Source of the DNA: a virus
Direction: 5' to 3' (one strand)
Virus genome (UHGV): UHGV-0201843
DNA: 18,268 nucleotides
Below the pieces are notes generated by a model, which searched no databases, was not told the DNA's origin, and saw only the letters and a program-made list of their open reading frames with translations. The translations under genes were made by a program, and so were the position numbers. Position 1 is the stretch's first letter, and every line of letters starts with the position of its first letter. Positions 1 to 18,268 of the stretch are shown here, piece after piece.

Positions 1-191
1 CTATGGTTGTAAATTCTATGATCGTTTTTGGTGAAGAATAATTTTTCTTATACTTCACCCCACCCCCTCCCAAAAACGAGACTATAATTTGAGCGCATTG
101 CGAGACAAATTTCGATTGAAAGGTCGATGTACTTTCAAAAAATATTCAATCCATTCTTCACCAAAAACGATCATAGAATTTACAACCATAG
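1..191. repeat. Left terminal fold-back element: perfect 39-bp inverted repeat (1-39 vs 153-191) around a 113-bp spacer that carries the ITR core
   Basis: Direct reading: reverse complement of 1-39 (ctatggttgtaaattctatgatcgtttttggtgaagaat) equals 153-191 exactly. Pairing breaks at 40/152. The outer arm starts at window position 1. Confidence 0.85.
41..105. repeat. Inverted terminal repeat core, left copy (65 bp, perfect match to reverse complement of 18164-18228). Contains C-rich box ccccaccccctccc
   Basis: atttttcttatacttcaccccaccccctcccaaaaacgagactataatttgagcgcattgcgaga is present at 41-105. Its exact reverse complement lies near the right end. Similarity continues imperfectly to about 125. 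Confidence 0.9.
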
Positions 192-228
192 CGACGAAAA
201 TTTTTTTCAAAAAATATCATCAAAACTA

Positions 229-257
229 TTGCAAAAAATTCACACCTATTATATAAT
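229..257 (+). promoter_or_regulatory. Sigma-A-type early promoter (TTGCAA - 17 bp - TATAAT) upstream of first early gene
   Basis: TTGCAA at 229-234, 17-nt spacer, TATAAT at 252-257. About 30 nt upstream of the GGAGG RBS of the 289 CDS. Confidence 0.5.
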
Positions 258-288
258 GGAATCAAGTTAGAAATGGAGGTGAAAAAAA

Positions 289-561
289 GTGACAGATGAA
301 AAAGGTCAAGCCTATACGGAAATGTTGCAACTATTTAATTTACTTCAACAATGGAATGATTTCTACACTGCAGAAAATGCAAATAATTTATTAGTTGCTT
401 GTCAACAATTATTGATTAATTACAATGAACCAGTCATTAAATTTATCAACGATGAAAATGAAGATAAGTCCCTACTTCAATATTTAGCTGGTGATGATGG
501 TTTAGCACAATGGCAATTTTACAAAGGTTTTTATAACAACTACAATGTACACATTTTCTAA
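289..561 (+). CDS. Early protein, 90 aa, unknown function (GTG start)
   Basis: ORF with GGAGG RBS (275-279) 9 nt upstream of GTG at 289. First gene after the left-end promoter. No recognisable motifs. Confidence 0.6.
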   Translation: MTDEKGQAYTEMLQLFNLLQQWNDFYTAENANNLLVACQQLLINYNEPVIKFINDENEDKSLLQYLAGDDGLAQWQFYKGFYNNYNVHIF

Positions 562-614
562 TGAACTGAGTTAATACTATATTCTACTAAAATATAATAA
601 ACGGAGGTGTGTTG

Positions 615-830
615 ATGAATTATATTGATGTTGAAATTAAGGGTTTTACAATTTACTCAAAAAATGATAGACATGAAGAGTATGACTTTTTTATTCCTAA
701 ACAAGATTATAGAATTACTAAACGTGAAATATTACAACATATTCCAGAAGGTCATACGCTACTCGACAGTAAACGAACATCAAAAATGATTACAGTTTCA
801 TATGATGAATTATTAAAAATTGAAATATAA
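615..830 (+). CDS. Early protein, about 71 aa, unknown function
   Basis: GGAGGTG at 603-609 followed by ATG at 615. The track ORF 609-830 begins with GTG/TTG codons inside the RBS. ATG 615 is preferred. Confidence 0.55.
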   Translation: MNYIDVEIKGFTIYSKNDRHEEYDFFIPKQDYRITKREILQHIPEGHTLLDSKRTSKMITVSYDELLKIEI

Positions 831-844
831 AGGAGATTAAAACA

Positions 845-1354
845 ATGGCAAATGTAAAAGATTTATTAAACAAATATTCAAACGGTGGTGCAAAATTCGA
901 GTATGACAATGAAAAAGAAAGAGATTACATCAAACTAGGTGAATTGGATTCATCAAAAACATACCCTATTGAAGCACTATTTATTAATACCAAAGGTAAA
1001 TTTGGTGATCAAGGTGTTATTATTAGTGGTGATTATATTGTAAATCTACCTAATCACTTAACAGAAATGATTGAAGATATGAGAAAAGATGAAGAAATGG
1101 TTGATGCAATCAATCAACGTTTATTTGATTTTGAAATTTATGAATTTGAATCTAAAAAATATAATCGTAAATCACATAGTATTAATTTAGTACCTAGTGA
1201 AAAAACAAAACAAGAGGTTGAACCTGAACCTGAGCAACGTAATCCGTTATATCGTGAACCTGAATCTGAAAAAAAAGTAGAAAATGATCGACGTAACCCG
1301 TTCGCTCACGCTAATGGTGCAATTGATATTAGTGATGAAGATATACCATTTTAA
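845..1354 (+). CDS. SSB-like early protein (169 aa) with acidic/Pro-rich disordered tail ending in the SSB-type C-terminal tip DISDEDIPF
   Basis: AGGAG at 831-835, 9-nt spacer, ATG at 845. The C-terminal hexapeptide DEDIPF matches the bacterial SSB C-terminal protein-interaction motif (consensus DDDIPF). It is preceded by a low-complexity E/P-rich linker. The N-terminal approximately 115 aa is not recognisably a canonical OB fold by eye. Confidence 0.6.
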   Translation: MANVKDLLNKYSNGGAKFEYDNEKERDYIKLGELDSSKTYPIEALFINTKGKFGDQGVIISGDYIVNLPNHLTEMIEDMRKDEEMVDAINQRLFDFEIYEFESKKYNRKSHSINLVPSEKTKQEVEPEPEQRNPLYREPESEKKVENDRRNPFAHANGAIDISDEDIPF

Positions 1355-1367
1355 ATAAAAATTAAAT

Positions 1368-1392
1368 AAAGGGGGCAATGCCTCCTTTTTTA
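1368..1392 (+). terminator. Rho-independent terminator or attenuator after SSB-like gene
   Basis: aaagggggc / gcctccttt stem (9 bp with one G-U, 3-nt loop) followed by TTTTT at 1386-1390. Sits 14 nt after the stop of the 845-1354 CDS. Confidence 0.55.
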
Positions 1393-1408
1393 TTATGGAG
1401 TGATAAAT

Positions 1409-1654
1409 ATGTTTGGTACTATTGTGACAATTGGATTATGTTTATATGGTATAATTGCATTATTAGTGGTTTCAATTGTAAATTATAAAAGGAATGATTA
1501 TATGAACTTAATTCAAGCATATTATAAAATCGTTAATGCACTCAATGATTATGATTTAACAGATGAACAAAAAGAAAAACTTGAACAAGCACTATTTGAA
1601 ATCACTTGTGTATTAAACGATTTAGAAAGCGAGGGAAAATATTTTGATTATTAA
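1409..1654 (+). CDS. Small N-terminally membrane-anchored early protein (about 81 aa)
   Basis: GGAG at 1397-1400 then ATG at 1409 (MFGTIVTIGLCLYGIIALLVVSIV...). The track start 1400 is a GTG inside the RBS. One predicted TM helix then an acidic helical tail. Confidence 0.6.
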   Translation: MFGTIVTIGLCLYGIIALLVVSIVNYKRNDYMNLIQAYYKIVNALNDYDLTDEQKEKLEQALFEITCVLNDLESEGKYFDY

Positions 1655-2873
1655 ACATCAAATAAAACTACATTTAAACGAATTGATTGATTGGGTGTGG
1701 AGACATAATATCAAGAATGAAAAATATTACTCAAATAATGGTTCATATGTGATATTTGATCATGGTGCAGTCGTTGAAACGTATATTATTAATAAAAATG
1801 ATTTATTTAATGTGACTGATGAAACAGAAATCACACTTGATACACCAATTCAACATTTTTTAGAAAAGGATATGTATGGTAATTATCGTGAACATTTTGA
1901 TATATCAATTCATCAATTATTGTTTTTAAATACAACAACTGATTTATGGTTAATTAATAACGATGATTCACACATTTTAATATATAAAGACGGAAAACTC
2001 ATTGATGAATATATGTATCATGAATTTGAATATGAAGCCAATCAGAATAAGCATATTTACCAAAATAATAAAGCAAGTGGTACATACCCACATCAAAGCG
2101 AACAAAACGTAAAAAAACCGAACAATCACCCTACCCCAAAACCTGAAACACCTGAAGATCACACACCAAAAGTTAGAACAGTTAAGACATTAAACGGTAC
2201 AGTAATGAAAGATTATACACCCGTTTCATCAATACAATATGTTAAATCTGTTGGAATCATTGGTGACAGTGTGGGTAAAGGCGCGCATGCTTCATATAAC
2301 TTTGGTGATTATATTAATGAAAAAAGTGGTGCAAAAATAAAAAACTTATCAGTCAGTAGTGCCACAATGAGTGATGTGAAAGATAATAATATCATTAATC
2401 AAGCGAAACAATTAAAAGATAATGAACTCGTGATTATACAGGGTACTGATGATGATTGGTTGTTTAATTCTAATACAGGTGTTGAAGTAGGAAATAAACT
2501 TACAGATACGAAAACATATATCGGTGCATTTTATAAGGTTATCGAAACGGTTAAAGAAAATAACCCAAAAGCTAAAATCATAGTGATTACACCTACAAAA
2601 CAAGCAAAAGTTGACGATACTGGAAAAGTAATCAGACGTGATACAGATAAAAATAAAAAAGGTTACACGTTGAAAACCTATGTTGACGCACAAGTAAAAG
2701 CAACTAAAGATTTAGGATTAGCTTTATATAATGCGTATGATGATTCATTGATTAATCCATATGAAGCAAAATTCAGACAATCGTCAATGAAAGATGGATT
2801 ACACCCAACAAAATGGGGACATGAAGTAATGTACTACCGTATAGCAGAAACATATCATAAAAAATTTGATTGA
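1644..2873 (+). CDS. Fusion protein (409 aa): N-terminal domain of unknown function, Pro/Thr-rich linker, C-terminal SGNH/GDSL-family hydrolase (esterase) domain
   Basis: TTG start at 1644, preceded by GAGGG (1631-1635) with an 8-nt spacer, overlapping the upstream stop. SGNH blocks: GDS in VGIIGDSVGKG (block I); GTDDD (block III variant of GxND); DGLHPT (block V DxxH catalytic dyad). Linker PNNHPTPKPETPEDHTPK. Confidence 0.7.
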   Translation: MIIKHQIKLHLNELIDWVWRHNIKNEKYYSNNGSYVIFDHGAVVETYIINKNDLFNVTDETEITLDTPIQHFLEKDMYGNYREHFDISIHQLLFLNTTTDLWLINNDDSHILIYKDGKLIDEYMYHEFEYEANQNKHIYQNNKASGTYPHQSEQNVKKPNNHPTPKPETPEDHTPKVRTVKTLNGTVMKDYTPVSSIQYVKSVGIIGDSVGKGAHASYNFGDYINEKSGAKIKNLSVSSATMSDVKDNNIINQAKQLKDNELVIIQGTDDDWLFNSNTGVEVGNKLTDTKTYIGAFYKVIETVKENNPKAKIIVITPTKQAKVDDTGKVIRRDTDKNKKGYTLKTYVDAQVKATKDLGLALYNAYDDSLINPYEAKFRQSSMKDGLHPTKWGHEVMYYRIAETYHKKFD

Positions 2874-2883
2874 GGTGTAGTAA

Positions 2884-3387
2884 ATGAGAAGTGGTAATAA
2901 AGGTAATCGCATTGCACGTTCAAATGCGTTTAGAAATGCAACAAGCAAAAATCAATCAACGTATGAACGTGACGGTTTTGTTTTTTTATTTGATGATGAA
3001 GAATTACAAAAAGAATATATACATGAATATAACAAATTTAATAATTTATTTGTGGAAAAAGGAAAGGTTAAATTACCTAAACCGAAAAAGATAAGTTATA
3101 TTGATGCTAAAAGTTTAGTCAGTGGAAAGAATCAAGAAAAGTTAACAGAAATAGAAAATGTTTATAAACAATTGGACTATGACTGGGAAGAAAAAGGGAA
3201 TATGCACAAACGCCACCTATTCCAAGAAGCAGTCAAAGAAAATGACGGCTCACAAGAAATATCACACTTTATTAAATCAACTGAAAAGTTATTTGAGGAA
3301 CTCGCAGAAGCAACGAACGTACCAGATATTGTCAATAAAAAACAAGTGAAATATAACGTGGTTTATTACGTCAGACGGGTAGGTTAA
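2884..3387 (+). CDS. Basic 167-aa protein of unknown function (candidate DNA-binding or terminal-protein-like)
   Basis: GAGGTG at 2872-2877, ATG at 2884. Lys/Arg-rich N-terminus (MRSGNKGNRIARSNAFRNATSKN). Sits immediately upstream of the packaging ATPase and polymerase genes. Confidence 0.6.
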   Translation: MRSGNKGNRIARSNAFRNATSKNQSTYERDGFVFLFDDEELQKEYIHEYNKFNNLFVEKGKVKLPKPKKISYIDAKSLVSGKNQEKLTEIENVYKQLDYDWEEKGNMHKRHLFQEAVKENDGSQEISHFIKSTEKLFEELAEATNVPDIVNKKQVKYNVVYYVRRVG

Positions 3388-3445
3388 AATATGTTTGAAA
3401 ACATTCAAGATATTATTGATTATTATTCAAGTAAGGAGGGACAAC

Positions 3446-4705
3446 ATGAAAAAGTCACGACTGAATGAGGTCAAAGATTATCAAAATTTTGTAACTAAGT
3501 TTAGACGATCTATTCCAAAGCAATATAACCAAATTGAACTTGTTGATGATTTAATGAATTTAGATATAGATTTTCTTATTTCTATATCAAACCGTTCAGA
3601 TGGTAAAACATTCAACTATGTTGCTTTTTTTATGAAGTTAGCCATTGATTTAGACATCAAATTCACACTACTAGCAAGACACCATACGTTACGTGACGCA
3701 TACAGAGAATTGTTAGAACGTATTTGTATCGAACAAAAACATTTTAACGATAATGATCTATTCTTTAGAAACACACAAGACTATATAGCTGTTGGATATG
3801 GTGATAAAGAAATAGGGATTATTACACATCTCAATAACGCAACAGATTTAAAATATCATTCCAACTTCATGAAAAACTTTCCTATTATCATCTATGATGA
3901 ATTTTTAGCATTGGAAAGTGACTATTTGATAGATGAGTGGGAAAAGTTAAAAACGATTTATGAATCTATTGATAGAAATCATGGCAATATTGATTATATT
4001 AAAATTCCTAAAATCGTATTATTAGGTAATGCTGTGAACTTTTCAAGTCCACTACTTGCAAACTTAAATATTTATGAACAATTACAACATCATTCTAAGT
4101 TTGCGATGAATAGTAAACGTCAATACGGAAATATCATGTTAGAAATGAGGCGTAATGAATTTTCTAATGAGAATCGTAATACACGTGCATTTAATACGGA
4201 TCATGATTCAATGACAACGGGTGAATTTGATTTCAATACATTTAATTTAGCTGATGATCATTTACGTGCACATATATCGAGTAATGGAAACTTTTTCTAT
4301 ATTAAAACCCCTTACAATTATATTAAAGTAATGTATCACTTGAATGACTATCAAACGAATATTAAAGTCGTGCCTTATGCAGACAATTATCAGTTTTGTA
4401 CTGATGTTTCAGATGTTGAAAAAAACGCAATATATTTAAAAGATACATTTTATAAGGAAAATCATTCTAAACGTTATTATAACCCCTCAAATCTTCATTT
4501 TGACAATGCTTATAGTAAGTCTTTTATATTGAATCAAGATGATTTTATTTATCTAAACATGAACAAAATTATTAAGTATCATTTAAAAACTGAACGTAAT
4601 AAAAACGGTTACAAACCTTTTGAACAAAAAGAAAAAATGTATTATGATAATTACATTGAACGTACCAAAAAAAATCTAGTCAAATCATTTATAAGCAATG
4701 TGTAA
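3446..4705 (+). CDS. DNA encapsidation (packaging) ATPase, phi29 gp16-like
   Basis: Strong RBS GGAGGG (3435-3440) before ATG at 3446. The upstream ATG at 3395 lacks a good RBS. Walker A-like SNRSDGKT and Walker B-like hydrophobic run + DE (IIIYDEF). Position upstream of the polymerase as in 44AHJD-like phages. Confidence 0.7.
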   Translation: MKKSRLNEVKDYQNFVTKFRRSIPKQYNQIELVDDLMNLDIDFLISISNRSDGKTFNYVAFFMKLAIDLDIKFTLLARHHTLRDAYRELLERICIEQKHFNDNDLFFRNTQDYIAVGYGDKEIGIITHLNNATDLKYHSNFMKNFPIIIYDEFLALESDYLIDEWEKLKTIYESIDRNHGNIDYIKIPKIVLLGNAVNFSSPLLANLNIYEQLQHHSKFAMNSKRQYGNIMLEMRRNEFSNENRNTRAFNTDHDSMTTGEFDFNTFNLADDHLRAHISSNGNFFYIKTPYNYIKVMYHLNDYQTNIKVVPYADNYQFCTDVSDVEKNAIYLKDTFYKENHSKRYYNPSNLHFDNAYSKSFILNQDDFIYLNMNKIIKYHLKTERNKNGYKPFEQKEKMYYDNYIERTKKNLVKSFISNV

Positions 4706-4709
4706 AGTT

Positions 4710-4738
4710 TTTACATATTGCTTTTTATGTGTTATAAT
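4710..4738 (+). promoter_or_regulatory. Strong sigma-A promoter with extended -10 (TTTACA - 17 bp - TGTTATAAT) for the DNA polymerase gene
   Basis: TTTACA at 4710-4715, 17-nt spacer ending TGT, TATAAT at 4733-4738. The polymerase RBS GAGGTG and ATG at 4763 follow. Confidence 0.55.
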
Positions 4739-4762
4739 GAATTTTGATTAGAGGTGTAGAAC

Positions 4763-7057
4763 ATGGGATTATTAGAAGCAATGCAAAAAAATAAAGGTCA
4801 AAAACATATGTACCTTTATTGGGATATAGAAACATTAAATTATAATAAAATTGCTGGTAGAGAAAAACCTACAAAATATAAAAACGTGACATACAGTGTT
4901 GCAATTGGTTGGTATGATGGACAACATATTGATGTTGAAGTTTTTTCTAGTTTTAAAGCCTTTTATCAATCTTTTTTCGAATATGCACAAAGACGAGATA
5001 CAATAACAAAATCACAAACTACAATCAATATGATCGCACATAATTGTAATAAATATGATAATCACTTTCTACTACACGATACACAAAATTTCTTTGGTGA
5101 TGATTTAATTATTGAAAATTTATATATGAAAAGTGCTGATGATAATTCAAATACAGTTAATATCAATGAAGCAAAATTATTATCTAAAGAAACCAATGTG
5201 ATTTTAGAAAAACGTGTGAAATCAAGTATTAATTTAGATTTAATGATGTATTTAAAAGGTTTTAAGTTTAATATTATAGACAATTTTATGAAAACCAATA
5301 CATCAATCGCAACACTCGGTAAAAAGCTCAAAGACGGTGGGTTTATCAGTGAAGATGAGTTAAAAACTGATTTTGAATATGATGTGTTTGATGTTGAACA
5401 TGATATGACAGATAAACAAGCTTATGATTATGCTTATGAATGTTTTCATCAACTTACAGCATCACAAATGACCTATATTAGAAACGATGTCATCATATTA
5501 GGTATGTGTCATATCCATTATAGTGATATATTTCCCGGATTTGATTATAGTGCGATGACCTTTAGTGTAAATATTATGAAAAGCTATATTAATAATGAAA
5601 CAACACGATTGCAATTACTCAATAAAAAAGGTAAACAAAAAATATCATATACGGACTTTACATTTTTTGATATGAATTTTTATGACTTTATCAAAGGTTT
5701 CTATCGTGGTGGTTTAAATATGTATAATTCACGATACGTTGACAAAATCATTGATGAGGAATGTTTTTCAATAGACATAAATAGTAGTTATCCCTATGTG
5801 ATGTATCATGAAAAATTACCGATGTATATTTATGATTTTGATGAATATGAACAACCGACAACGATACACATTGATTTAACCAATAAAGATTATTTTTCAC
5901 TTTATAAAATGGATAAGGTCACATTTAATCGTACTATTTTAAGAAATATTGAAAGTGATTTAATTAAGCAATGTCTTGTTAAATACTACAATAATGACAA
6001 AAAGTTTGTTAATATAAATACAAACACTTTACGCATGATTGAAGATTTAACGGGTTTAACTTTTGACAAAATAAAAGTGTTTGCTTTTGTGTGTTATGAA
6101 TGTGAATACTTTGGCGCTCGTGATATTATTCATCATAATTATTTCATCAAAACGCAAGGTAAATTAGATAAAAAAATCATTATGGATTCACCCTATAATT
6201 ACACGATCACTGATGAAGTCAATACACATACTTATTCAAAAGAAGAAATCATGTTAAGTAAAGTTGTTTTAAATGGTCTGTATGGTATACCTGCTTTACG
6301 GTCACATTTTAATTTGTTTAGACGTGATGAGGACGGTTTTTTAGTTAACCATGAAAATGGATATAAAAACAGTGAACGTAATTTATTATTTTCTACTTTT
6401 GTGACATCACAAGCCCTTTATAATTTACTTGAACCATTAAAGTCATTAACACAATCTGAAATAGATGACTGCTTTATATATTGTGATACTGACAGTTTAT
6501 ATTTAAAATCAAAAATTAAACATAAAATAAATGATGAATTATTTGACCCTATTGCATTAGGTAAGTGGGATATAGAAAATCATGTCATTAAAAAAATGTA
6601 TGTACTCAATCATAAAAAGTACGCCTACCAAAAAGAAGATAACACAATTAAAATTGCCAGTGCAGGTATTCCATTAGACGCATTTAATAAGAATCAATCT
6701 TTTGAAAATTTTATTAAAAATGATTTTCACCATAAAGCAATTGTGTATAACAATAAATCCATTTATAACGAACAAAAAACAATATCTATTTACCCGTCAA
6801 AAACATATATTGAAAAGGGTACGCCTTATGATTATTATTTCACTAAAGAATTAGAGGATAGAAAAGAAGATGTTTTAAAACAAGCAAGACAAGAATATGA
6901 TGATGTGAATGATGATGATATATTATATATAGAGAGTGAAGTAGGCGCTTTTTCATTTAGTGACTTATTTCCATATCAATTTGAAATTAAAAATAAATGT
7001 GATCTTAACATATTATATATGGTTCATCAAGATATAAAAAATGACGCTACATCATAG
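4763..7057 (+). CDS. Protein-primed family-B DNA polymerase (phi29-type), 764 aa
   Basis: Exo I (LYWDIETL), Exo II (HNCNKYDNHFL), Exo III (YIRND), motif A (DINSSYP), motif B (KVVLNGLYG), motif C (YCDTDS), KxY (KKY). GAGGTG RBS. Confidence 0.95.
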   Translation: MGLLEAMQKNKGQKHMYLYWDIETLNYNKIAGREKPTKYKNVTYSVAIGWYDGQHIDVEVFSSFKAFYQSFFEYAQRRDTITKSQTTINMIAHNCNKYDNHFLLHDTQNFFGDDLIIENLYMKSADDNSNTVNINEAKLLSKETNVILEKRVKSSINLDLMMYLKGFKFNIIDNFMKTNTSIATLGKKLKDGGFISEDELKTDFEYDVFDVEHDMTDKQAYDYAYECFHQLTASQMTYIRNDVIILGMCHIHYSDIFPGFDYSAMTFSVNIMKSYINNETTRLQLLNKKGKQKISYTDFTFFDMNFYDFIKGFYRGGLNMYNSRYVDKIIDEECFSIDINSSYPYVMYHEKLPMYIYDFDEYEQPTTIHIDLTNKDYFSLYKMDKVTFNRTILRNIESDLIKQCLVKYYNNDKKFVNINTNTLRMIEDLTGLTFDKIKVFAFVCYECEYFGARDIIHHNYFIKTQGKLDKKIIMDSPYNYTITDEVNTHTYSKEEIMLSKVVLNGLYGIPALRSHFNLFRRDEDGFLVNHENGYKNSERNLLFSTFVTSQALYNLLEPLKSLTQSEIDDCFIYCDTDSLYLKSKIKHKINDELFDPIALGKWDIENHVIKKMYVLNHKKYAYQKEDNTIKIASAGIPLDAFNKNQSFENFIKNDFHHKAIVYNNKSIYNEQKTISIYPSKTYIEKGTPYDYYFTKELEDRKEDVLKQARQEYDDVNDDDILYIESEVGAFSFSDLFPYQFEIKNKCDLNILYMVHQDIKNDATS

Positions 7058-7070
7058 TAGCGTCTTTTTT
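7043..7070. terminator. Bidirectional rho-independent terminator between the convergent early (+) and late (-) operons, overlapping the polymerase stop codon
   Basis: Perfect 8-bp stem gacgctac / gtagcgtc with loop atcata (contains the polymerase TAG). Followed by TTTTTT (7065-7070) on the plus strand and preceded by an A-run (tataaaaaat, 7033-7042) that gives a U-run for the minus-strand transcript. Confidence 0.65.
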
Positions 7071-10810: not shown

Positions 10811-10820
10811 ATATCATAAT

Positions 10821-11618: not shown

Positions 11619-12507
11619 GCTTTTCAACCTCCAATTTTCCCCAAAGATTTTTTTCATTTTTAATTTTTTCTTGTTTATCTTCAATATGACCTATTGGCAT
11701 ATAGAAATATTTATCGCTTGAACCTTTTTTAGCGTATTTAAACTTAATCCACCATAATTTTGCTTGTTTATCTTTTATGATTTGATAAAACGGTACATAT
11801 TCATTAGGTTGTATATATGAATCTTTATCAACCTCTTTTGCAGTCATACCATAATCATATCTAGGAACAATCGGTAATGTATTTGTTTTATGAGCAGTAA
11901 ATGTACCACGCCAATTATATTTAACGTATTTATTTTCACTCACTTGTGGTTTATCAGGTGTTTTTCCACCGTTTGCATAATGTTTAATACGAGAGATAAA
12001 GTAATCAATCAATTTTAATTGGTTTGCTCTTGTATTTGGTGCATTAACCCCTATGTGTATATCCCAACTACGATGAGGACAAGACGTTGAAAAGTATTCA
12101 CGATGTAGGTGAACCGTATTACGATTAATTGGTAAATTGTATGATTTCATCACATCGGCAACAACTTTAAAAGTAGCTTCTTCATTTTTCATAAATGTTT
12201 CATCAGATATATGATTTGGATAACTTTCACAGACTTCAAAACCAATTAAATGTTGGTTTGCGTATTGATTTCCACAATGCCACTCAACAAAATTTGTAGG
12301 GTGATACCATAAAACCTCATTACGATTGATATAAACTGAAGCCCAACCCTGTGTATACGTACCATTTTGTTCACGTGTATATAACCAGTTTAAATATTGG
12401 CTAGGTGTCATTGAACCGTAATCATTATGAATGACTACGCCATCAATACTAGGTTTTTGACCTGTCAACTTTTGACCTTTAATGTGATTTGAATAAATGT
12501 TTTTCAT
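11608..12507 (-). CDS. Endolysin: N-acetylmuramoyl-L-alanine amidase (Amidase_2/PGRP type) with C-terminal SH3-like cell-wall-binding domain, 299 aa
   Basis: AGGAGG RBS 7 nt before ATG at 12507. Zinc-amidase motifs: His in GVVIHNDYG, and H...E...CP in HLHREYFSTSCPHRS. C-terminal approximately 90 aa is Trp/Tyr/Lys-rich and SH3b-like. Confidence 0.75.
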   Translation of the reverse strand: MKNIYSNHIKGQKLTGQKPSIDGVVIHNDYGSMTPSQYLNWLYTREQNGTYTQGWASVYINRNEVLWYHPTNFVEWHCGNQYANQHLIGFEVCESYPNHISDETFMKNEEATFKVVADVMKSYNLPINRNTVHLHREYFSTSCPHRSWDIHIGVNAPNTRANQLKLIDYFISRIKHYANGGKTPDKPQVSENKYVKYNWRGTFTAHKTNTLPIVPRYDYGMTAKEVDKDSYIQPNEYVPFYQIIKDKQAKLWWIKFKYAKKGSSDKYFYMPIGHIEDKQEKIKNEKNLWGKLEVEKHGK

Positions 12508-12543
12508 TATAATACCTCCTTAAAATTTAAGGATAGGCAAAGC

Positions 12544-14373
12544 CTACCCTAGAATAATCAACCCTTTACTTGATAATGTTTGAGGGTCAACATTGGTAGA
12601 ATATCCATGGTCTTTATCTGTAAATATCCTACTACCATTATACACGTTATAAACTGTTTTGTTACTAGATATGTTAGAACCAAAACAAGTAATTTCACCA
12701 CCACGTGTTGCATAAACGGGTTCATTTTTAGTACCTGAAATATTTGACGCTTCGGCGAACACTTTAGACGCATAAGCTAAAATACCAAAATCACCACTAC
12801 CTTTAATTGTGATTCTATCTGCAAATATTTGACCACCACGTGTGGCTTCAATACCGTTACGACCTGCACGTTCAATCACTGCTTCATTAATAGAAATCAC
12901 TGAACCATATGCCAATACGTTATCATCTTTTGAACGTGATACTTTCGCACCATATGCAGCGACATATCCACCACGTGTGGCTTCTAATCCACGACGACCA
13001 TTTCCATCACAATTAATCAATTGACAATACACATCACCTGCATAAGCAAGTACGCCATTACGTTTATTTCCATTCGTTGTTGATAATCTTGCTTGAACTG
13101 TTGAACCATGTGTACATTGGATTCCGTCAAGTCCGTTTTCATTTGCATTACCACTTGTGAAATCCACTTTTGAATTGTTACTTGCTATGACACCATGCCA
13201 TTTATTACGTGAAGCTGTAGCTTTAGTAGCATCAATTGAACAACCTCTATTTGCCATAATACCACTTGCACCACAACCATTAGCAATCCCTTGATCAAAG
13301 TTAATATTTGATGAACGGGTAGCAATGACACCGTATGTTGTTTGTGAATTTGAGCAATCAGAATATCTTAAATCAATATCACTTGAGGCGTAACTAACAA
13401 CGTTATCATCAATAGTATCAGTGATTTTACAGTTTCTAGCACTGGCTTGTGAACCTGTGGTTACCATTAAACCATGATGACCGTTGAAACGTGCTTCAGT
13501 ATAATCTATATAACCACTTGCACCATGTGAGAAATGAATACCAATCTCACCACAACGATTGACTGTCATGTAATTGGCTGTGAGTGATGAGTTAAATATT
13601 CTTATTCCATCACCATACATATTTTGTTGATTGTTAAATTCTTCTAATTGTTCACGATTACCATTGTAGGAAAAATCACAATAGTTGGCCCCTATATGTG
13701 AACCATTGACACCACATAAACCAATAAAATTAAAGTGTGTTGACCCACCACGTTCAGTCATTTCAAACGTTGTATTATCCATTAAGAAACCACAGTTAAT
13801 ACTATCTGAAAAATCTTTGTTTTGAAGTTTAAAATCAATTTTAGGGAATGTTGAATTAATTCCATAAAATAATGGTTTTACTCTAAAAATTGGATTTGTT
13901 TTTATTTCAACTTGACGATTTAATTCAGTTTCATAGGCTTCTACAATATCATTTTCTGATGTAATCGTAATATGATTATAACGTTTATCACGTAAGAATA
14001 ATTGTTCGCCCATCTTGTAATCTTTAAGTAAAATCACACGTATAGATTTTGGTTGTACAATTAAATCTTCAATATGTTCAAAACAATGATTCAATGTATC
14101 AAAGTCACCTTTTTGTCCGACTGTATAAGTCACATCAGTATTTGATAATGTTAAAGCGTCGTATGTTTCTTTCATTTTTTGTATATCATCTGCTAAACCA
14201 TTGACAAAATCACATAATTCAAAAATAAAACCATTGAAACGTGCTAAGTAATCATAATATGATTTTGAATTGGTATTGTAATCTGCATTGTCTGTATAAA
14301 ATGGTAATCGTGACACACCACGTCTATATCCGTATTCATTATTGTAGTTGATTCGACCGTTATTAATATACAT
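12544..14373 (-). CDS. Tail fibre / appendage (receptor-binding) protein with beta-helix (pectate-lyase-like) repeats, 609 aa
   Basis: GGAGG RBS 7 nt before ATG at 14373. Gly/Asn/Ser-rich beta-solenoid-like repeats (NGSHIGANYCDFSYNGN, GIHFSHGASGYIDY, NGHHGLMVTTGSQ). Position between lower collar and lysis genes as for the phi29 gp12 or P68 fibre. Confidence 0.6.
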   Translation of the reverse strand: MYINNGRINYNNEYGYRRGVSRLPFYTDNADYNTNSKSYYDYLARFNGFIFELCDFVNGLADDIQKMKETYDALTLSNTDVTYTVGQKGDFDTLNHCFEHIEDLIVQPKSIRVILLKDYKMGEQLFLRDKRYNHITITSENDIVEAYETELNRQVEIKTNPIFRVKPLFYGINSTFPKIDFKLQNKDFSDSINCGFLMDNTTFEMTERGGSTHFNFIGLCGVNGSHIGANYCDFSYNGNREQLEEFNNQQNMYGDGIRIFNSSLTANYMTVNRCGEIGIHFSHGASGYIDYTEARFNGHHGLMVTTGSQASARNCKITDTIDDNVVSYASSDIDLRYSDCSNSQTTYGVIATRSSNINFDQGIANGCGASGIMANRGCSIDATKATASRNKWHGVIASNNSKVDFTSGNANENGLDGIQCTHGSTVQARLSTTNGNKRNGVLAYAGDVYCQLINCDGNGRRGLEATRGGYVAAYGAKVSRSKDDNVLAYGSVISINEAVIERAGRNGIEATRGGQIFADRITIKGSGDFGILAYASKVFAEASNISGTKNEPVYATRGGEITCFGSNISSNKTVYNVYNGSRIFTDKDHGYSTNVDPQTLSSKGLIILG

Positions 14374-14384
14374 TGTTTATCCTC

Positions 14385-15236
14385 CTACCATATGTGTAAA
14401 AAACATTCTTTATCATATGTTTTAAATATTGTATCACGCATGGAATATAATTTTTGTAAGTTATCAATTAAGTATTGTTTTGTTAAACCTGTACGATTCA
14501 TTTCATTTTGTGACTCAGTATTACGTTTCGTATCACTTTCACCGTTTCTTAATGAATCAAACGTATTATCTTTTGTACCTGTTTTTTCTGATACTGTTTC
14601 ACTGGTATTTTTATCTCGTGAAATCGTGTTTGTGTCTGCATAATCAAGCACTGTATTATCTACATCAATATTCACTTGTGATTGTGGTAAAGTAGATTCA
14701 GCAGTACGGTTATCATCAAAACTTTTTGTAATTGTATCTTCATAATCTTTATATTCTTCATGACCTTTGTCTTGTTGTCTATCTTTCGTTTGACCTTGTT
14801 CAATGGCATTTTCTAATGCTTTGCCAATATCCGTTGACTGTGTGTCAGTCATTTGTTCAATATATTTATACATATCTGAACCATAGACACGATATATATA
14901 TTCTTCATGTGTCATGGTGATGTATAATACTTGACTTGCAAAGGATTCTACTGTTTGACGACCTATTTCACGATATAAAAAACGCAATGTGAAACTTTCT
15001 TTAAAATATCGGTCAATCCGTTCATCATTAAACATGAAACCTTTAAAAAACATATTATCAACAATTTGTTTGACATCATCATCAAAATACAACATCTTTT
15101 GCATAAACGCATGTTTTGAATCGTTAAAGTGGATTCTATCATTATTAACAAATTCATTTAACCCTAAACGTTGTAATTCACTTTCAATGATTTCATATAA
15201 CGTTGTTGTGTGTTTACTCAACTTTTCCACCACCAA
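14385..15236 (-). CDS. Lower collar protein (putative), about 280 aa. Start codon uncertain: TTG/GTG cluster at 15236-15219
   Basis: Size and synteny (downstream of portal). No ATG and no clear SD. Start overlaps the portal C-terminus (GGTGGTGGAAAAGTTG), which suggests translational coupling. Polar low-complexity C-terminal region. Confidence 0.5.
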   Translation of the reverse strand: MVVEKLSKHTTTLYEIIESELQRLGLNEFVNNDRIHFNDSKHAFMQKMLYFDDDVKQIVDNMFFKGFMFNDERIDRYFKESFTLRFLYREIGRQTVESFASQVLYITMTHEEYIYRVYGSDMYKYIEQMTDTQSTDIGKALENAIEQGQTKDRQQDKGHEEYKDYEDTITKSFDDNRTAESTLPQSQVNIDVDNTVLDYADTNTISRDKNTSETVSEKTGTKDNTFDSLRNGESDTKRNTESQNEMNRTGLTKQYLIDNLQKLYSMRDTIFKTYDKECFLHIW

Positions 15237-16221
15237 AATTATCAGTCTTGATATTCATTATATCCATTTCAGATATAGCTTCATCATCATAATAAGGGTG
15301 AATATCCAAATTAAAACGACGATTTAACATTTCAAAAGGGTAGCGACCTCTTAAATAAATATTACTATTTGATGTAGTAAATGAACGGTTTGATTTTGCT
15401 TCAGTGTCACTGACACCACTTTCTTTATCTACTGCAAGTGAATTGACACCTAAGAAATTTGATAACTCACTGACTTTGTTTTGATACTCTCTTTTCATCT
15501 CAACTAAAGCAGTAGTTACAAAATCACTACCCAAATCAATGATATCTTCATCAGGATCAATATAATGATCTGTTTTAATAAAAGGTGCACCATTATACAA
15601 TTTATTAATAAATTGGTTTATTGTTTCATCTTGAATATCAGATAAAAATATTTTACTAAATTTAGATTGCATAATAAGTGAAAAACGACTTAATATAATT
15701 TCTGCTAACTCATCACAATAATGTTCTATAATTTGATAATCATTATTTAAATTAATAGGTTTATTGCGTAATACAATAAAATCACCACTTTGGCAATTAT
15801 CATAGTATTCAATTTCTAACGCATATTCTGGTCTTAAATATTCTGGAATGATAAATGTAATATCATCTTGAGTTAATCGTCTGTTAAAAGTTAAATTGAA
15901 GTTATTGATAAAATCGTTACTATTTTTATAATACATAGATTGAATATACCCTAATATCATAATGACACCATTTCTAGCTTTACCAACCACAACTTGATAC
16001 CCTTGTCTTAATGCAATCTCAAGTTGTAAAAAGTCAATACCAACACTTTTTTGATTGGTGTAATTAATAAGTAGTGGTAAAAATTCAACGTAACGATTAA
16101 AAATTAACCGACGAAATCGGTTTCTATGTTCCATAATTCGTCGGTCAATATCTTCTGGCAATTCAACTTTTAAACCACCATTATTATCTTTACCAATATA
16201 ATCGTTGTCTAAATAATTCAT
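15214..16221 (-). CDS. Portal / upper collar (connector) protein, 335 aa
   Basis: AGGAGG RBS then ATG at 16221. N-terminal basic RNA/DNA-binding-like motif EHRNRFRRLIFNRYVEF resembles the phi29 gp10 RQKRNRWFIHYLNYL segment. Size close to gp10. Confidence 0.65.
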   Translation of the reverse strand: MNYLDNDYIGKDNNGGLKVELPEDIDRRIMEHRNRFRRLIFNRYVEFLPLLINYTNQKSVGIDFLQLEIALRQGYQVVVGKARNGVIMILGYIQSMYYKNSNDFINNFNLTFNRRLTQDDITFIIPEYLRPEYALEIEYYDNCQSGDFIVLRNKPINLNNDYQIIEHYCDELAEIILSRFSLIMQSKFSKIFLSDIQDETINQFINKLYNGAPFIKTDHYIDPDEDIIDLGSDFVTTALVEMKREYQNKVSELSNFLGVNSLAVDKESGVSDTEAKSNRSFTTSNSNIYLRGRYPFEMLNRRFNLDIHPYYDDEAISEMDIMNIKTDNFGGGKVE

Positions 16222-16239
16222 GGTTTAAAAGCCTCCTTA

Positions 16240-17460
16240 TTATTCTGTTTCTTCGCTATCTTCTGGTTGTTCTTTTGGTGCTTCAGTGATTAATATTTTA
16301 TTGAAGAAAGGTGACATGGCTTTAAATGAATAGTAATGAATCCAGTGTGTGACTTCATCAAATTCACCATTATAAAATGGCTCTTTTAACATGCCTTTTG
16401 TATTACGTTTGTATTTAAGTGCATTAATATCAAAGATAAATGCGAATAATTCGCCTTGTGGTTTAATTTCTTCAATATTTCCACTAAATTCTTTTAAGTT
16501 TGATACATCAAACGTAAATACTGAACCTGTAGGGATTACATCACCAATCATTGCTTGATAATCACCAAAAGCACGTAAGTAATTAATTGTATCTTCATTA
16601 GATAGTGTGACATCTTTTGTTGTTTTATACACACCACCTAAATCATCAAAACTGATAATGTGATCTGTGAAATCAATACCAGCCATTTGGAAAGTGTTCG
16701 CTATTTTCGTATCAAGTAAATATGATTTAAGTGAATCTGTCGTTAAAATTGCAATATCTTTTAATTTAGATACCGTTGTATATTGTCCTACTGTACCACC
16801 ACTAGCTTTATGAACCTCATTGTATTTGGCACTGTTGTTTTGCATGTTTAAAATTGCTTCAAATACACGTTCAGTTAAATCTTCTTTTGATGAAGCAGTA
16901 CGACGGTTTGAATCTTGTAATTGATTAATTGCATAATCAACCATCATTGCTCTTATTTCTTTTTCTTCTTGAACATTAATATCAGAAATCTTTTTACGTA
17001 ATACACCTAACGCATAATTTGTAGCGTCACCTAATGTTTGGAAATTAAAACGAACATCATTATTATTCAATGTGAATTTCTGTTTTTTAACTATTCCGGA
17101 ACCGTATAAACGCGTTGCCATTTGTGGATAGTTACGTTTTAACATTAATTCTTCTGATTTTGATAAATTCATTTCAATAGGGATCGTATCCATGATGACA
17201 TATTCTTCAGAATATTGTCCGATAAAATCTTGCTCTTTTGCTAACCAATTAAAACGATTTCCCAATGCAATATCAATGAGTAATGTTTCATTGATTTTAG
17301 GGAATAAGTATTTATTCACATATGTTTCAAACATTGTATTTACATTAGACCAATTCTCACCAAAAGTCCATTGCTTACCATAATCATGGTTAAAATCTTG
17401 CAATGACGCTTTTGTTGAATCAGCAATTAAAGTAGGTATATCTGTTTTTTTAGTTGCCAT
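16240..17460 (-). CDS. Major capsid protein, 406 aa
   Basis: GGAGGAG RBS 7 nt before ATG at 17460. Size and position (after scaffold-like gene, before portal) match the MCP of P68-like phages. Confidence 0.6.
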   Translation of the reverse strand: MATKKTDIPTLIADSTKASLQDFNHDYGKQWTFGENWSNVNTMFETYVNKYLFPKINETLLIDIALGNRFNWLAKEQDFIGQYSEEYVIMDTIPIEMNLSKSEELMLKRNYPQMATRLYGSGIVKKQKFTLNNNDVRFNFQTLGDATNYALGVLRKKISDINVQEEKEIRAMMVDYAINQLQDSNRRTASSKEDLTERVFEAILNMQNNSAKYNEVHKASGGTVGQYTTVSKLKDIAILTTDSLKSYLLDTKIANTFQMAGIDFTDHIISFDDLGGVYKTTKDVTLSNEDTINYLRAFGDYQAMIGDVIPTGSVFTFDVSNLKEFSGNIEEIKPQGELFAFIFDINALKYKRNTKGMLKEPFYNGEFDEVTHWIHYYSFKAMSPFFNKILITEAPKEQPEDSEETE

Positions 17461-17473
17461 TGTTTAACTCCTC

Positions 17474-17665
17474 CTATACTTCTTGTGTACCTTCATCACT
17501 ATATGATTGTTTTGTTAATGAATGAACTTGTCGTCCGTATTCATCTTCTGATTTTGATGTAGCAATACTCATATTTTCATTTAATTCTCTTGATTTATTT
17601 AAACGTGAATCTTCATAATTGGCATGTGTCATGCCACGCATTTCATTTCCATCAAATACTGACAT
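17474..17665 (-). CDS. Small polar protein (about 63 aa) between scaffold-like and capsid genes, unknown function
   Basis: AGGAGTG RBS then ATG at 17665 (MSVFDGNEM...). The track start 17674 is a GTG within the RBS. Confidence 0.5.
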   Translation of the reverse strand: MSVFDGNEMRGMTHANYEDSRLNKSRELNENMSIATSKSEDEYGRQVHSLTKQSYSDEGTQEV

Positions 17666-17677
17666 ATTTTTCACTCC

Positions 17678-18001
17678 TTATAAATTTAACATTTCTTTAA
17701 TTTCTTCACTTGATTCAATACCATCTGTTTCTTGATCGTCATCAACTTCAGTAGGTGATGTTTTATCTTCAAAATTTGGATCACTTGATGTTTCATTAGT
17801 TGATTGTGCTTCTTGATTATTCAATCGTTGCTCTAATGCAGTCACACGTTGTTCTAATTGAACAAAAGCCTCTGATTTTTCTTCTGTTGTTTCTTTTTCT
17901 GGTTCAGTGACAACATCTTCTGCACTTTCAATTTTTTCTGGTGATTCTTCTGTTGATTCTGTTTCAGGTTCTTCTTTGATAATTTTTTCTTCTTCTGCCA
18001 T
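17678..18001 (-). CDS. Acidic coiled-coil head protein (scaffolding or inner-core candidate), 107 aa
   Basis: GAGGTG RBS 9 nt before ATG at 18001. Very acidic (E/D/S/T-rich) with central heptad-like LEQRVTALEQRLNNQE. First gene of the late operon, as for phi29 gene 7. Confidence 0.55.
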   Translation of the reverse strand: MAEEEKIIKEEPETESTEESPEKIESAEDVVTEPEKETTEEKSEAFVQLEQRVTALEQRLNNQEAQSTNETSSDPNFEDKTSPTEVDDDQETDGIESSEEIKEMLNL

Positions 18002-18058
18002 TTTATTTACACCTCTTTATTTTATAAAAATAATTAAGCAAATAATTTGCTTGTTTCA

Positions 18059-18087
18059 ATTATAACATAAAAATAAATAAATGTATA
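18059..18087 (-). promoter_or_regulatory. Late-operon promoter on minus strand with extended -10 (TATACA - 17 bp - TGTTATAAT)
   Basis: On the minus strand: TATAAT = complement of 18059-18064, TGT = complement of 18065-18067, -35-like TATACA = complement of 18082-18087. About 55 nt upstream of the first late gene. Confidence 0.45.
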
Positions 18088-18094
18088 AATTTGT

Positions 18095-18268
18095 ATCGTT
18101 TCTTATTCATAATCCATCGTTTAATTTTGAATGTATTTTTCTTAACCTTTTACTCAAAATTTCTCTCGCAATGCGCTCAAATTATAGTCTCGTTTTTGGG
18201 AGGGGGTGGGGTGAAGTATAAGAAAAATACATTCAAAATTAAACGATGGATTATGAATAAGAAACGAT
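18095..18268. repeat. Right terminal fold-back element: perfect 50-bp inverted repeat (18095-18144 vs 18219-18268) enclosing the inverted copy of the 65-bp ITR core (18164-18228)
   Basis: Direct reading: reverse complement of 18219-18268 equals 18095-18144 exactly. The repeat ends at the last base of the window. 18164-18228 is the exact reverse complement of 41-105. Confidence 0.85.

Follow-up and report, generated by a model that had tools for sequence, protein, structure and literature searches.

Described relatives of the phage

The phages closest to the genome analysed here are Andhra (KY442063 / NC_047813; Andhravirus andhra), Pontiff, and JBug18 of the genus Andhravirus, which is placed in Rountreeviridae, Rakietenvirinae. 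Protein roles, a lytic lifestyle, and protein-primed replication have been described for such phages (PMC9710869), and the two Andhra lysins have been characterized (PMC5362749). St 134 (KY471386; Andhravirus St134) belongs to the same genus and has the same gene layout, and the S. aureus phages P68, 44AHJD, 66, and SAP-2 (genus Rosenblumvirus) belong to the same subfamily. The Bacillus phage phi29 (Salasmaviridae) shares with the genome studied here a protein-primed PolB, a terminal protein, ITRs starting with AAA, a phi29-type capsid protein, a connector, a knob, and a packaging ATPase, but it differs in family, in arm layout, and in its prolate head. Moreover, phi29 carries a 174-nt pRNA gene at its left end, whereas a search for the Rfam pRNA gave no match in our sequence; in the literature on staphylococcal picoviruses we found no report of a pRNA.

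The DNA examined in this study (UHGV virus genome UHGV-0201843, 18,268 nt at its full length, hereafter "the window") sits inside the genus Andhravirus. We are highly confident that it represents the nearly complete linear genome (~18.2 kb) of an uncultivated Andhravirus member with less than 95% similarity to Andhra, with contig ends that are probably chimeric. All 96 records that match the window by Megablast are Staphylococcus phages. Andhra aligns along the entire window (100%) at 91.0% identity, and St 134 and the skin phages S-CoN_Ph28-35, BESEP3, PSU3, and V1SC05, all more distant than Andhra, align at 88–89% over 90–98% of it. By tblastn, 19 of the 20 Andhra proteins are present at 79–100% identity, with order and strands unchanged; Andhra, Pontiff, and JBug18 alike match the window in these 19 genes, in genome size, and in having convergent arms. 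They also share with it the distinguishing genes, namely those for the GDSL hydrolase that anchors the receptor-binding protein (RBP), the beta-helix RBP, the Amidase_2+SH3b endolysin, and the CHAP tail tip lysin; their ITRs are of the same sequence family, and both the central terminator and the conserved intergenic unit occur in them as well. Unlike Andhra, the window lacks gp4, and its head fibre is only 79% identical to that of Andhra.

Gene order is also collinear with that of the Rosenblumvirus phages, whose packaging ATPase, polymerase, tail lysin, knob, portal, and capsid protein are 64–78% identical to those of the window, and whose intergenic promoter and 5' part of the small unit discussed below are conserved at ~82%; whole-genome similarity is 44%. 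The P68-type endolysin (CHAP+SH3_5) has no similarity to gp14 of the window (Amidase_2+SH3b_P2), the P68-type RBP is a 5-bladed propeller instead of a beta-helix, gp5 and gp6 homologues are absent from Rosenblumvirus, and the head fibre is longer there (481 aa). A first-pass annotation of the window had named three differences from P68, of which the endolysin type held. The holin, thought to be placed differently, occupies the same slot between tail lysin and knob in both groups (P68 ORF12 and gp11 of the window are both Phage_holin_4_1), and the supposedly extra fibre-like gene encodes the head fibre, for which P68 has ORF14.

Gene content of the two arms

Plus-strand ORFs span 289–7057 and minus-strand ORFs 7164–18001, and GC skew flips sign near 7000, in agreement with the initial reading of a phi29-like Staphylococcus podophage with two convergent arms. 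The called genes take up 93.6% of the window, whose GC content is 29.9%. Pfam and PHROGs assign the SSB, GDSL hydrolase, packaging ATPase, PolB, CHAP tail lysin, holin, and tail knob, as well as the head fibre, Amidase_2+SH3b endolysin, beta-helix RBP, lower collar, portal, and phi29-type capsid protein. The gene list of the first-pass annotation had omitted the GDSL hydrolase, the terminal protein, the tail tip protein, and the capsid lining protein. Identities below are to the Andhra homologues, whose numbering is used.

The left arm (plus strand) opens with a gp1 homologue of 90 aa with a GTG start (289–561; 100%; phrog_6274), a tail tip protein according to PMC9710869 and the St 134 annotation, followed by homologues of gp2 (615–830; 95.8%; phrog_6346) and of gp3, a single-stranded DNA-binding protein (845–1354; 90.1%; phrog_378 SSB, E=1e-10). 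The accessory gene gp4 of Andhra, expected before gp5, gave no tblastn match in the window, where a 208-nt gap corresponds to Andhra 1443–1651; gp4 is likewise missing from four relatives (L009, L010, L012, and L027). Next come the gp5 homologue (1409–1654; 87.5%) and an SGNH/GDSL hydrolase homologous to gp6 (1644–2873; 86.1%; Lipase_GDSL_2, E=1e-9; phrog_33778), which starts at a TTG at 1644, or at 1662 going by Andhra homology, and whose role is that of an RBP anchor (PMC9710869). The gp7 homologue (2884–3387; 88.0%; phrog_6099) is the presumed 5' terminal protein, which would act as the replication primer; this assignment goes back to an AlphaFold model matched to phi29 gp3 (PMC9710869). 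The arm ends with the DNA encapsidation (packaging) ATPase gp8 (3446–4705; 94.5%; phrog_2150, E=2e-106) and the protein-primed family B DNA polymerase gp9 (4763–7057; 96.2%; phrog_1907, E=3e-170), which scored 19.6 bits against PF03175, under the cut-off of 25.8.

The right arm (minus strand) carries, from its inner end outwards, homologues of the tail tip lysin gp10 with a C-terminal CHAP domain (7164–8582; 98.9%; CHAP E=1e-7; phrog_5979), a role described in PMC9710869 and PMC5362749, the holin gp11 (8575–8985; 98.5%; Phage_holin_4_1, E=1e-30), and the tail knob protein gp12 (8994–10760; 98.5%; Caud_tail_N, E=1e-38). The gp13 homologue, a head fibre (10821–11618; 78.8%; phrog_30677; role from PMC9710869), is the gene most diverged from Andhra; it contains an internal repeat of ~90 nt, and the region 10501–11500 is 98.6–98.8% identical to a different lineage (L008). 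It is followed by the endolysin gp14, with Amidase_2 and SH3b_P2 (11608–12507; 92.3%), the RBP gp15, a tail appendage with a right-handed beta-helix (12544–14373; 95.9%; Beta_helix; phrog_37178) whose receptor-binding role comes from PMC9710869, and the tail stem/lower collar protein gp16 (14385–15104; 96.7%; phrog_3225). For gp16 an alternative upstream start is possible at 15221 (278 aa), and the gene call in an independent assembly (L047) also has 278 aa. The outer part of the arm encodes the portal (upper collar) gp17 (15214–16221; 95.5%; Phage_connector; phrog_2038), the major capsid protein gp18 (16240–17460; 97.3%; Phi29_MCP, E=3e-84), the capsid lining protein gp19 (17474–17665; 87.3%; phrog_6289), and gp20, an acidic portal-proximal core protein and possibly a scaffold (17678–18001; 82.6%; phrog_34730); the roles of gp19 and gp20 follow PMC9710869 and the St 134 annotation.

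Transcription signals and the proposed life cycle

Consensus scans predicted one sigma-70-like promoter at the outer end of each arm: TTGCAA-17-TATAAT at 229–257 (plus strand), the position of which is kept in the alignment of Andhra and Pontiff, and TATACA-17-TATAAT with TG at 18059–18087 (minus strand). Directly 5' of the polymerase gene, a strong promoter-like site (TTTACA-17-TATAAT with TG; 4710–4738, plus strand) and an overlapping terminator-like hairpin (4693–4723, plus strand) were predicted in the same way; two relatives (L032 and DSP1) have an equivalent TATAAT upstream of the polymerase gene. Between the arms, as the first-pass annotation had noticed, lies a bidirectional intrinsic terminator at 7043–7064 (GACGCTAC-loop-GTAGCGTC), detected on both strands with an A-run at its 5' side and a T-run at its 3' side, and with a T-run on each strand. 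It overlaps the stop codon of the polymerase gene (7055–7057) and is kept in relatives, among which L032 has a different hairpin sequence; in divergent genomes, seven of the eight pairs are altered on both sides.

The left arm would be transcribed rightwards from the promoter near 229–257, giving the SSB, terminal protein, packaging ATPase, and polymerase together with the virion proteins gp1 (tail tip) and gp6 (RBP-anchor hydrolase). The right arm would be transcribed leftwards from the promoter near 18059–18087, giving the capsid, portal, tail stem, RBP, endolysin, head fibre, knob, holin, and tail tip lysin, and transcription of both arms may end at the single terminator at 7043–7064. Replication would be primed by the terminal protein gp7 on each 5' end and carried out from the ITRs by the family B polymerase gp9. 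We infer this scheme of replication and transcription from the family.

Within the 106 nt that separate the arms lies a conserved promoter-to-terminator unit without annotation. This predicted small transcription unit (7036–7157, minus strand) begins with an extended -10 element, TGCTATAAT, at 7157 to 7149, and its predicted RNA of ~108 nt (7143 to 7036) would consist of a 5' hairpin, a conserved A-rich single strand, a second hairpin, the motif CACUAUACCUC, and the terminator. The RNA fold has a z of -5.0, covariation supports the unit, and its sequence matches 97 records, most of them without annotation beneath the match. The unit resembles a structured small RNA of ~108 nt common to staphylococcal picoviruses.

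Inverted terminal repeats and contig ends

The first-pass annotation placed an ITR at the ends of the arms, and we found one of 84 nt at 95% identity (41–124 vs. 18145–18228), the first 65 nt identical and the remainder with four mismatches. The same annotation took the window for a whole genome. It is essentially complete, but 7 nt of the true terminus on the left and ~14 nt on the right are replaced by inverted internal copies. The retained part of the left ITR covers 34–124 (plus strand), of which 34–52 match the terminus of a relative (L030), and lacks the AAATATT (7 nt) that is terminal throughout the genus; that of the right ITR covers 18145–18228 (minus strand). Positions 125–196, at the inner side of the left ITR, are diverged from Andhra, Pontiff, and JBug18, so the ITR would be ~98 nt once the 7 missing nucleotides are restored.

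The outermost 33–40 nt at each contig end are the inverted internal copies. On the left, 1–39 is an exact 39-nt reverse complement of 153–191, in which 1–33 is foreign to the terminus and 34–39 (AAGAAT) is a junction microhomology of 6 nt. On the right, 18219–18268 is an exact 50-nt reverse complement of 18095–18144, in which 18229–18268 is foreign to the terminus and 18219–18228 is a 10-nt microhomology (ATTTTTCTTA on the reverse-complement strand). Genomes of relatives open with AAATATTAAG, and they carry AAATATTAAGAATAATTTTTCTTATA at the start, then CTTCACCCC. Their termini are fixed by Illumina adaptors ligated straight onto AAATATTAAGG (Andhra, L017, L023, and L036), and clean contig ends give the same terminus in Pontiff, L008, L029, and L030.

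These ends could derive from real molecules, produced for example by dead-end template switching of the protein-primed polymerase near the termini and abundant enough to be assembled. Both ends fold back on their own diverged inner sequence at microhomologies, and in the independent MEGAHIT assembly L047, inner sequence of the left end is fused with the repeat at a microhomology close by, so some recurrent physical process may be involved. However, the two ends start with different sequences and without the conserved AAATATT origin, so fold-back ends would not be replicated by terminal-protein priming. None of the ~35 relatives has a fold-back inverted copy at its end, and the other assemblies of this phage (99.98–100% identical) lack these fold-backs, ending within the ITR or joining the ends via a different junction. 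Further, each contig end runs exactly 40 nt past the shared repeat, which looks technical. We therefore consider real fold-back molecules unlikely. Going by sequence comparison, the ends are probably chimeric fold-back junctions from library preparation or assembly, and not physical termini.

Host and lifestyle

The window is a strictly lytic-type phi29-like podophage genome. As the first-pass annotation had stated, it has no integrase, repressor, tRNA, or host gene: Pfam and PHROGs gave no match to integrase or repressor families among the called genes, and no tRNA genes were found in the window. That it could instead be a prophage, or part of a contig from a host or plasmid, is extremely improbable; no point in support of this was found, the knob gene has no relative in 185,579 bacterial and archaeal reference genomes, and independent contigs of the same phage measure 18.0–18.2 kb and are phage-only, without host flanks. 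The host is likely a coagulase-negative staphylococcus, as the earlier annotation had suggested, since relatives of at least 88% identity all come from S. epidermidis, S. capitis, S. ureilyticus, or skin CoNS, and the RBP is 95.9% identical to Andhra gp15.

Taxonomic rank and mosaicism

By a re-implementation of the VIRIDIC calculation, not VIRIDIC itself, the intergenomic similarity values for the window are 90.2% (Andhra), 89.9% (Pontiff), 89.7% (JBug18), 87.6% (St 134), 44.0% (P68), and 44.5% (SAP-2). The grouping by ICTV is recovered with this measure, which gives at least 95.4% similarity among Andhra, Pontiff, and JBug18 and 92.7–93.9% between these three and St 134; the species line of 95% is a convention. 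Among 36 contigs from IMG/VR and metagenome collections, the maximum similarity to the window is 87.1%. The same phage was found in four other public metagenome assemblies.

It is very unlikely that the window is just one more strain of Andhravirus andhra, and hence of a species already known, as whole-genome similarity is 90.2% and ICTV ranks St 134 as a separate species at 92.7–93.9% on the same measure, even though gene order is shared, most structural proteins are 95–99% identical, and some segments are 98–99% identical to Andhra. Still less probable is the distinct, undescribed staphylococcal picovirus lineage first proposed, with gene order rearranged relative to P68/44AHJD. The low similarity to P68 and SAP-2, the endolysin and RBP body without P68 homologues, and the lack of P68 counterparts of gp5 and gp6 would fit such a lineage, but these differences already define Andhravirus, described in 2017, and the window is collinear both with P68 and with Andhra, which, like Pontiff, had been named as a comparator in the first-pass annotation. 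Megablast, tblastn, the similarity figures, and P68 collinearity all led us to reject this lineage. Gene order is identical to that of a described phage, at a nucleotide identity of ~91% and not above 95%.

With ~90% identity to Andhra and the same gene order, the phage is therefore an ordinary new member of a described genus; it would count as a new species, of a known kind, because its similarity to described phages is below 95%, although the phage collection dates from August 2025 and a closer isolate may have been added later. Along its length, the best match per 500-nt interval alternates among relatives at 82–100% identity, and the genome thus forms a mosaic drawn from the gene pool of Andhravirus.

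Taxonomic Placement

A megablast search of the window against 50,697 phage records returned 96 matches to Staphylococcus phages and none to other phages. The closest match was Andhra (91.0% identity, 100% of the window covered), followed in rank by Pontiff, JBug18, Pike, the skin S-CoN phages, and St 134, at 88-90% identity. Three records had megablast identities of 95-99%, and those among the matches listed were uninformative 38-nt stretches. In a VIRIDIC-style calculation, the intergenomic similarity to the window was 90.2% for Andhra, 89.9% for Pontiff, 89.7% for JBug18, and 87.6% for St 134, all above the ICTV genus convention (~70% nucleotide over the whole genome), and 44.0% and 44.5% for the S. 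aureus Rosenblumvirus phages P68 and SAP-2, both below it. As a calibration, Andhra, Pontiff, and JBug18 were mutually 95.4-97.2% similar, and St 134, which is a separate species, was 92.7-93.9% similar to them; the measure thus recovers the ICTV grouping, with the Andhra trio at 95.4% or more and St 134 below 95%. The 36 additional contigs from IMG/VR and metagenome collections reached at most 87.1% similarity to the window.

Judged by nucleotide similarity, the window is a member of Andhravirus (Rountreeviridae; Rakietenvirinae). It lies under the 95% species line to all compared genomes, including the exemplars of Andhravirus andhra (90.2%) and Andhravirus St134 (87.6%), and by that convention is a newcomer at species rank. 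Its host is probably a coagulase-negative staphylococcus. The first-pass annotation had described a whole lytic phi29-like staphylococcal podophage, which stands, and a distinct lineage, which does not, as the genus has already been described and the gene order is unchanged. Comparison with described phages, among them Andhra, Pontiff, and SAP-2, did bear out that none exceeds 95%. The placement itself is a minor result, since isolates of Andhravirus, a complete cryo-EM structure of the virion, and numerous relatives from skin metagenomes are already on record.

Gene Content and Gene Order

The window has a GC content of 29.9%, and gene calls span 93.6% of its 18,268 nt. The ORFs form the two convergent arms that had been proposed from the sequence, one on the plus strand (289-7057) and one on the minus strand (7164-18001), and the GC skew changes sign near 7000. 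Searches with Pfam and PHROGs assigned an SSB, a GDSL/SGNH hydrolase, an encapsidation ATPase, and a family B polymerase to the left arm, and a CHAP tail lysin, holin, tail knob, head fibre, Amidase_2+SH3b_P2 endolysin, beta-helix receptor-binding protein (RBP), lower collar, portal, and phi29-type capsid protein to the right arm. The first-pass account of the gene set was correct, although it had passed over the GDSL hydrolase that anchors the RBP, as well as the terminal, tail tip, and capsid lining proteins. The phi29-type virion and packaging set is present (Phi29_MCP, Phage_connector, Caud_tail_N, phrog_2150). The polymerase matches the protein-primed family (phrog_1907, E=3e-170) and is 96.2% identical to Andhra gp9, while its PF03175 match (19.6 bits) is under the 25.8-bit cut-off. 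The window also encodes a homolog (88% identity) of Andhra gp7, for which a terminal-protein role has been predicted from a structural match to phi29 gp3 (PMC9710869).

The reported absence of lysogeny genes and tRNA held: ARAGORN found no tRNA in the window, and no called gene matched an integrase or repressor family in Pfam or PHROGs. With the knob gene as query, no relatives were found in 185,579 bacterial and archaeal reference genomes. None of the features of a temperate phage or prophage (integrase, repressor, host flanks) was found in the window.

By tblastn, 19 of the 20 Andhra proteins are present (79-100% identity), with order and strands unchanged, together with all the features that distinguish the genus from Rosenblumvirus, i.e., Lipase_GDSL_2 (RBP anchor), Beta_helix (RBP), and Amidase_2+SH3b_P2 (endolysin). 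The exception is gp4 (69 aa in Andhra), whose place is a clean 208-nt gap in the alignment; the regions compared are 1355-1408 in the window and 1439-1648 in Andhra. Since four close Andhravirus contigs (L009, L010, L012, L027) lack gp4 too, as do L019, L032, L033, and L038, which are more distant, it is a dispensable accessory gene.

Three departures from the P68 gene order had been suggested, of which only the endolysin type is real (CHAP+SH3_5 in P68, Amidase_2+SH3b_P2 in the window). The window proteins are fully collinear with those of P68 and SAP-2 by tblastn; the P68 holin (ORF12, Phage_holin_4_1) likewise lies between tail lysin and knob, and the supposed extra fibre-like gene is the head fibre, the counterpart of P68 ORF14. 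Other true differences from P68 are the RBP, a 5-bladed propeller in P68 and a beta-helix in the window, gp5, gp6, and the acidic core protein gp20, all already known distinctions between Andhravirus and Rosenblumvirus (PMC9710869, PMC5362749).

The top-matching relative switches every few hundred bases along the window, for example to the contig L026 at 15501-16000 (100% identity), indicating a mosaic genome as is usual for a recombining gene pool. The segment 10501-11500, in the head fibre region, is 98.6-98.8% identical to the relative L008 but only 82-86% identical to Andhra, and this near-identity marks a recombination patch. The head fibre gene (10821-11618) is the most diverged from Andhra (79% amino acid identity), and contains two copies of a ~90-nt unit (~30 aa, LxDEVQEVQEKLSDNExRIY...) at ~11239-11462. 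Because the genomes are mosaic, single-gene typing of Andhravirus would mislead.

A Conserved Intergenic Unit between the Two Arms

The bidirectional terminator expected between the arms was detected on both strands at 7043-7064. This conserved element shares bases with the polymerase stop codon; the central terminator of L032, P68, and DSP1 consists of other sequences that still pair. Terminator-like hairpins are enriched in the window (18 observed vs. 5.2 expected). Promoter-like sites occur at background frequency (133 observed vs. 130 expected), so single calls, such as those from the consensus scan at 229-257 in the left arm, at 18059-18087 in the right arm, and at 4710-4738 just upstream of the polymerase gene, where the site overlaps a terminator-like hairpin, are leads only.

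In ~30 Andhravirus genomes, the 106-nt gap that separates the polymerase stop (7057) from the tail-lysin stop (7164) shows a level of conservation typical of coding sequence, and the lysin-proximal part is ~82% identical even in the S. aureus Rosenblumvirus phages. In all, 97 records match this unit, nearly all of them without annotation there. On the minus strand, it begins with a perfect extended -10 box (7157 to 7149, TGCTATAAT), followed by a 5' hairpin, an A-rich conserved stretch (AAAUAAAnnACAAAACAUAAUC), a variable second hairpin, the motif CACUAUACCUC, an A-run, a terminator hairpin, and a U-run. The predicted 108-nt RNA has a fold z of -5.0, and its G-U pairs are compatible with the minus strand only.

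Of the 21 loci searched with a covariance model trained on eight Andhravirus sequences, 15 gave a strong match, one per staphylococcal picovirus genome, with P68, SAP-2, and DSP1 among them. The unit was conserved in every staphylococcal picovirus examined. Counterparts of window 7036-7157 (minus strand) lie at 7279-7388 in Andhra, and at 6342-6455, 11455-11547, and ~6415-6650 in the relatives L004, L046, and L045, respectively; PT1-9 has an enlarged version of ~235 nt that retains the outer stem and core. In the model-fitted alignment, 98.6% of cells pair, compared with 23-59% when the partners are slid. Changes on both sides occur in 12 of the 20 pairs (2/7 in the 5' hairpin, 3/5 in the second hairpin, 7/8 in the terminator), in an alignment that is fitted to the model and to which only ~4 independent lineages contribute. 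For the first two helices, the trend was the same in an independent MAFFT alignment. Covariation supports the predicted helices.

We consider the chances about even that this unit is a real, expressed, and functional RNA of ~108 nt in all staphylococcal picoviruses (Andhravirus, Rosenblumvirus, DSP1, and PT1-9). If so, the candidate small RNA might regulate translation of the terminal protein and polymerase. In a small-RNA target scan, the pairing energy of CACUAUACCUC was -17.2 kcal/mol with the ribosome-binding region of gp7 and -14.2 kcal/mol with that of gp9, beyond the 1% background value of -12.4 kcal/mol; a large share of this pairing is generic anti-Shine-Dalgarno complementarity, and in P68 the motif is not clearly conserved. 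The pairing is therefore suggestive at the level of speculation. The translation start regions of the terminal-protein gene (TTGATTGAGGTGTAGTAAATG, 2860-2886) and the polymerase gene (TTGATTAGAGGTGTAGAACATG, 4738-4765) are near-identical. A functional analog of the phi29 packaging RNA (pRNA) would be a less likely role than translation regulation, and we regard it as improbable. The whole window, searched against Rfam at E up to 1, gave no pRNA (RF00044) and no family for the intergenic unit, and pRNA is known only from Bacillus phi29-like phages according to a 2024 review. The Andhra structure paper does not mention such an RNA (PMC9710869), and a literature search for pRNA or small RNA in P68, 44AHJD, or Andhra, whose scope did not extend to the 2003 description of P68 and 44AHJD, returned nothing relevant. 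An equivalent unit after the polymerase gene was also sought in Idefix (Enterococcus) and C1 (Streptococcus), but their layout is different, with genes continuing on the same strand, and offers nothing to compare.

Genome Ends

An inverted terminal repeat (ITR), as had been claimed, is present at 41-124 and 18145-18228 (84 nt, 95% identity, first 65 nt identical). Beyond it, the window runs 40 nt further on each side, and these extensions are unlike each other: positions 1-39 are the exact reverse complement of 153-191, and positions 18219-18268 that of 18095-18144. None of the ~35 relatives has such fold-backs. The genomes of Pontiff, L008, L029, and L030 show the physical terminus, starting with AAATATTAAG, and in the Andhra record, L017, L023, and L036 the first A of the terminus is directly abutted by an Illumina adaptor (GTGACTGGAGTTCAGACGTGTGCTCTTCCGATCT). 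In L030, AAATATTAAGAATAATTTTTCTTATA precedes CTTCACCCC and serves as reference for the missing nucleotides: of its 26 terminal nt, the window keeps the last 19 at the left end and the last 12 at the right, so that 7 nt and 14 nt have been lost, respectively. The lost nucleotides include AAA, the short base repeat expected for sliding-back at the ends of such genomes, and fold-back copies stand in their place.

The two window ends are unlike one another and without the conserved origin, so that terminal-protein priming would presumably not start from them. We read them as chimeric fold-back junctions, most likely technical, with microhomologies of AAGAAT (left) and ATTTTTCTTA (right); that real molecules end in this way carries a small probability in our judgment. 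De Bruijn k-mer joins were rejected as the cause, as a microhomology of 6-10 nt is too short for graph joins at the usual k, and chimeric reads would be needed. Removing 1-33 and 18229-18268, and restoring AAATATT at the left and AAATATTAAGAATA at the right, would bring the corrected genome to ~18,216 nt and its ITR to ~98 nt. The window needs this trimming and restoration before deposition or ITR analysis.

Just inside the left ITR, 125-196 is diverged relative to both the right-end copy and the related phages, with many G-to-C or A-to-C differences, which cuts the ITR to ~98 nt from the 128 nt annotated in Pontiff. An inversion was rejected as the origin of this stretch, because direct alignment to relatives explains it about equally well. 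The only matches in the Rfam search, sub-threshold ones to the plant-miRNA models MIR7533 and MIR2670 at 1-199 and 18080-18268, are false positives, given the long fold-back hairpins at the window ends.

Recurrence and Quality of Public Records

By exact-protein look-up, the one search that recovered it, the window phage recurs at 99.98-100% identity in ENA ERZ27276124, ENA ERZ28650448, and Logan SRR1952315 and SRR1166542, and given this near-100% recurrence in several public metagenomes it is common in its environment. These four independent assemblies (L047-L050) align to window 2544-18236; one contig is present in 5 samples, and three of the four end inside the ITR. L047 (ERZ27276124 k141_11390, MEGAHIT, 99.98% identity) is circularly permuted, its two ends overlapping by 141 nt (1-141, 18087-18227), so a circularity test would misread the linear genome as circular. 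A GAATA-TTTTT microhomology marks its junction near 4527-4539, where left-inner sequence is fused to the terminal repeat and one ITR copy is lost. The exact 67-nt left-end pattern of the window had no match in the metagenome or reference-genome collections, and the single IMG/VR contig that matched a 54-nt gp1 pattern was rejected as a different relative (~89%).

The GenBank/RefSeq record of Andhra (KY442063) carries an indexed Illumina adaptor at both ends (1-67 and 18480-18546), abutting the terminus AAATATTAAGG. Of its published 155-nt ITR (14-168), ~54 nt are therefore adaptor, and the true length is ~101 nt. JBug18 has a poly-T run ahead of the terminus, and adaptor is found at the ends of three metagenome contigs as well; the ends concerned, besides those of Andhra, are those of L007, L017, L023, and L036. 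Two other records look like chimeric assemblies: OR354840.1 (S-CoN_Ph17, 88 kb), in which ~9 kb at 31106-40070 are Andhravirus-like (82% identity, 6 pieces), and OR354857.1 (S-CoN_Ph34), an Andhravirus record of 25,977 nt.

Implications

Phage therapy counts staphylococcal picoviruses among its candidates, and no reports of non-coding RNA in them were found in the literature searched. The intergenic unit is the sole item here that merits experiment: a conserved gene for a small RNA within a genome of 18 kb, if true, would be a new functional element of these phages.
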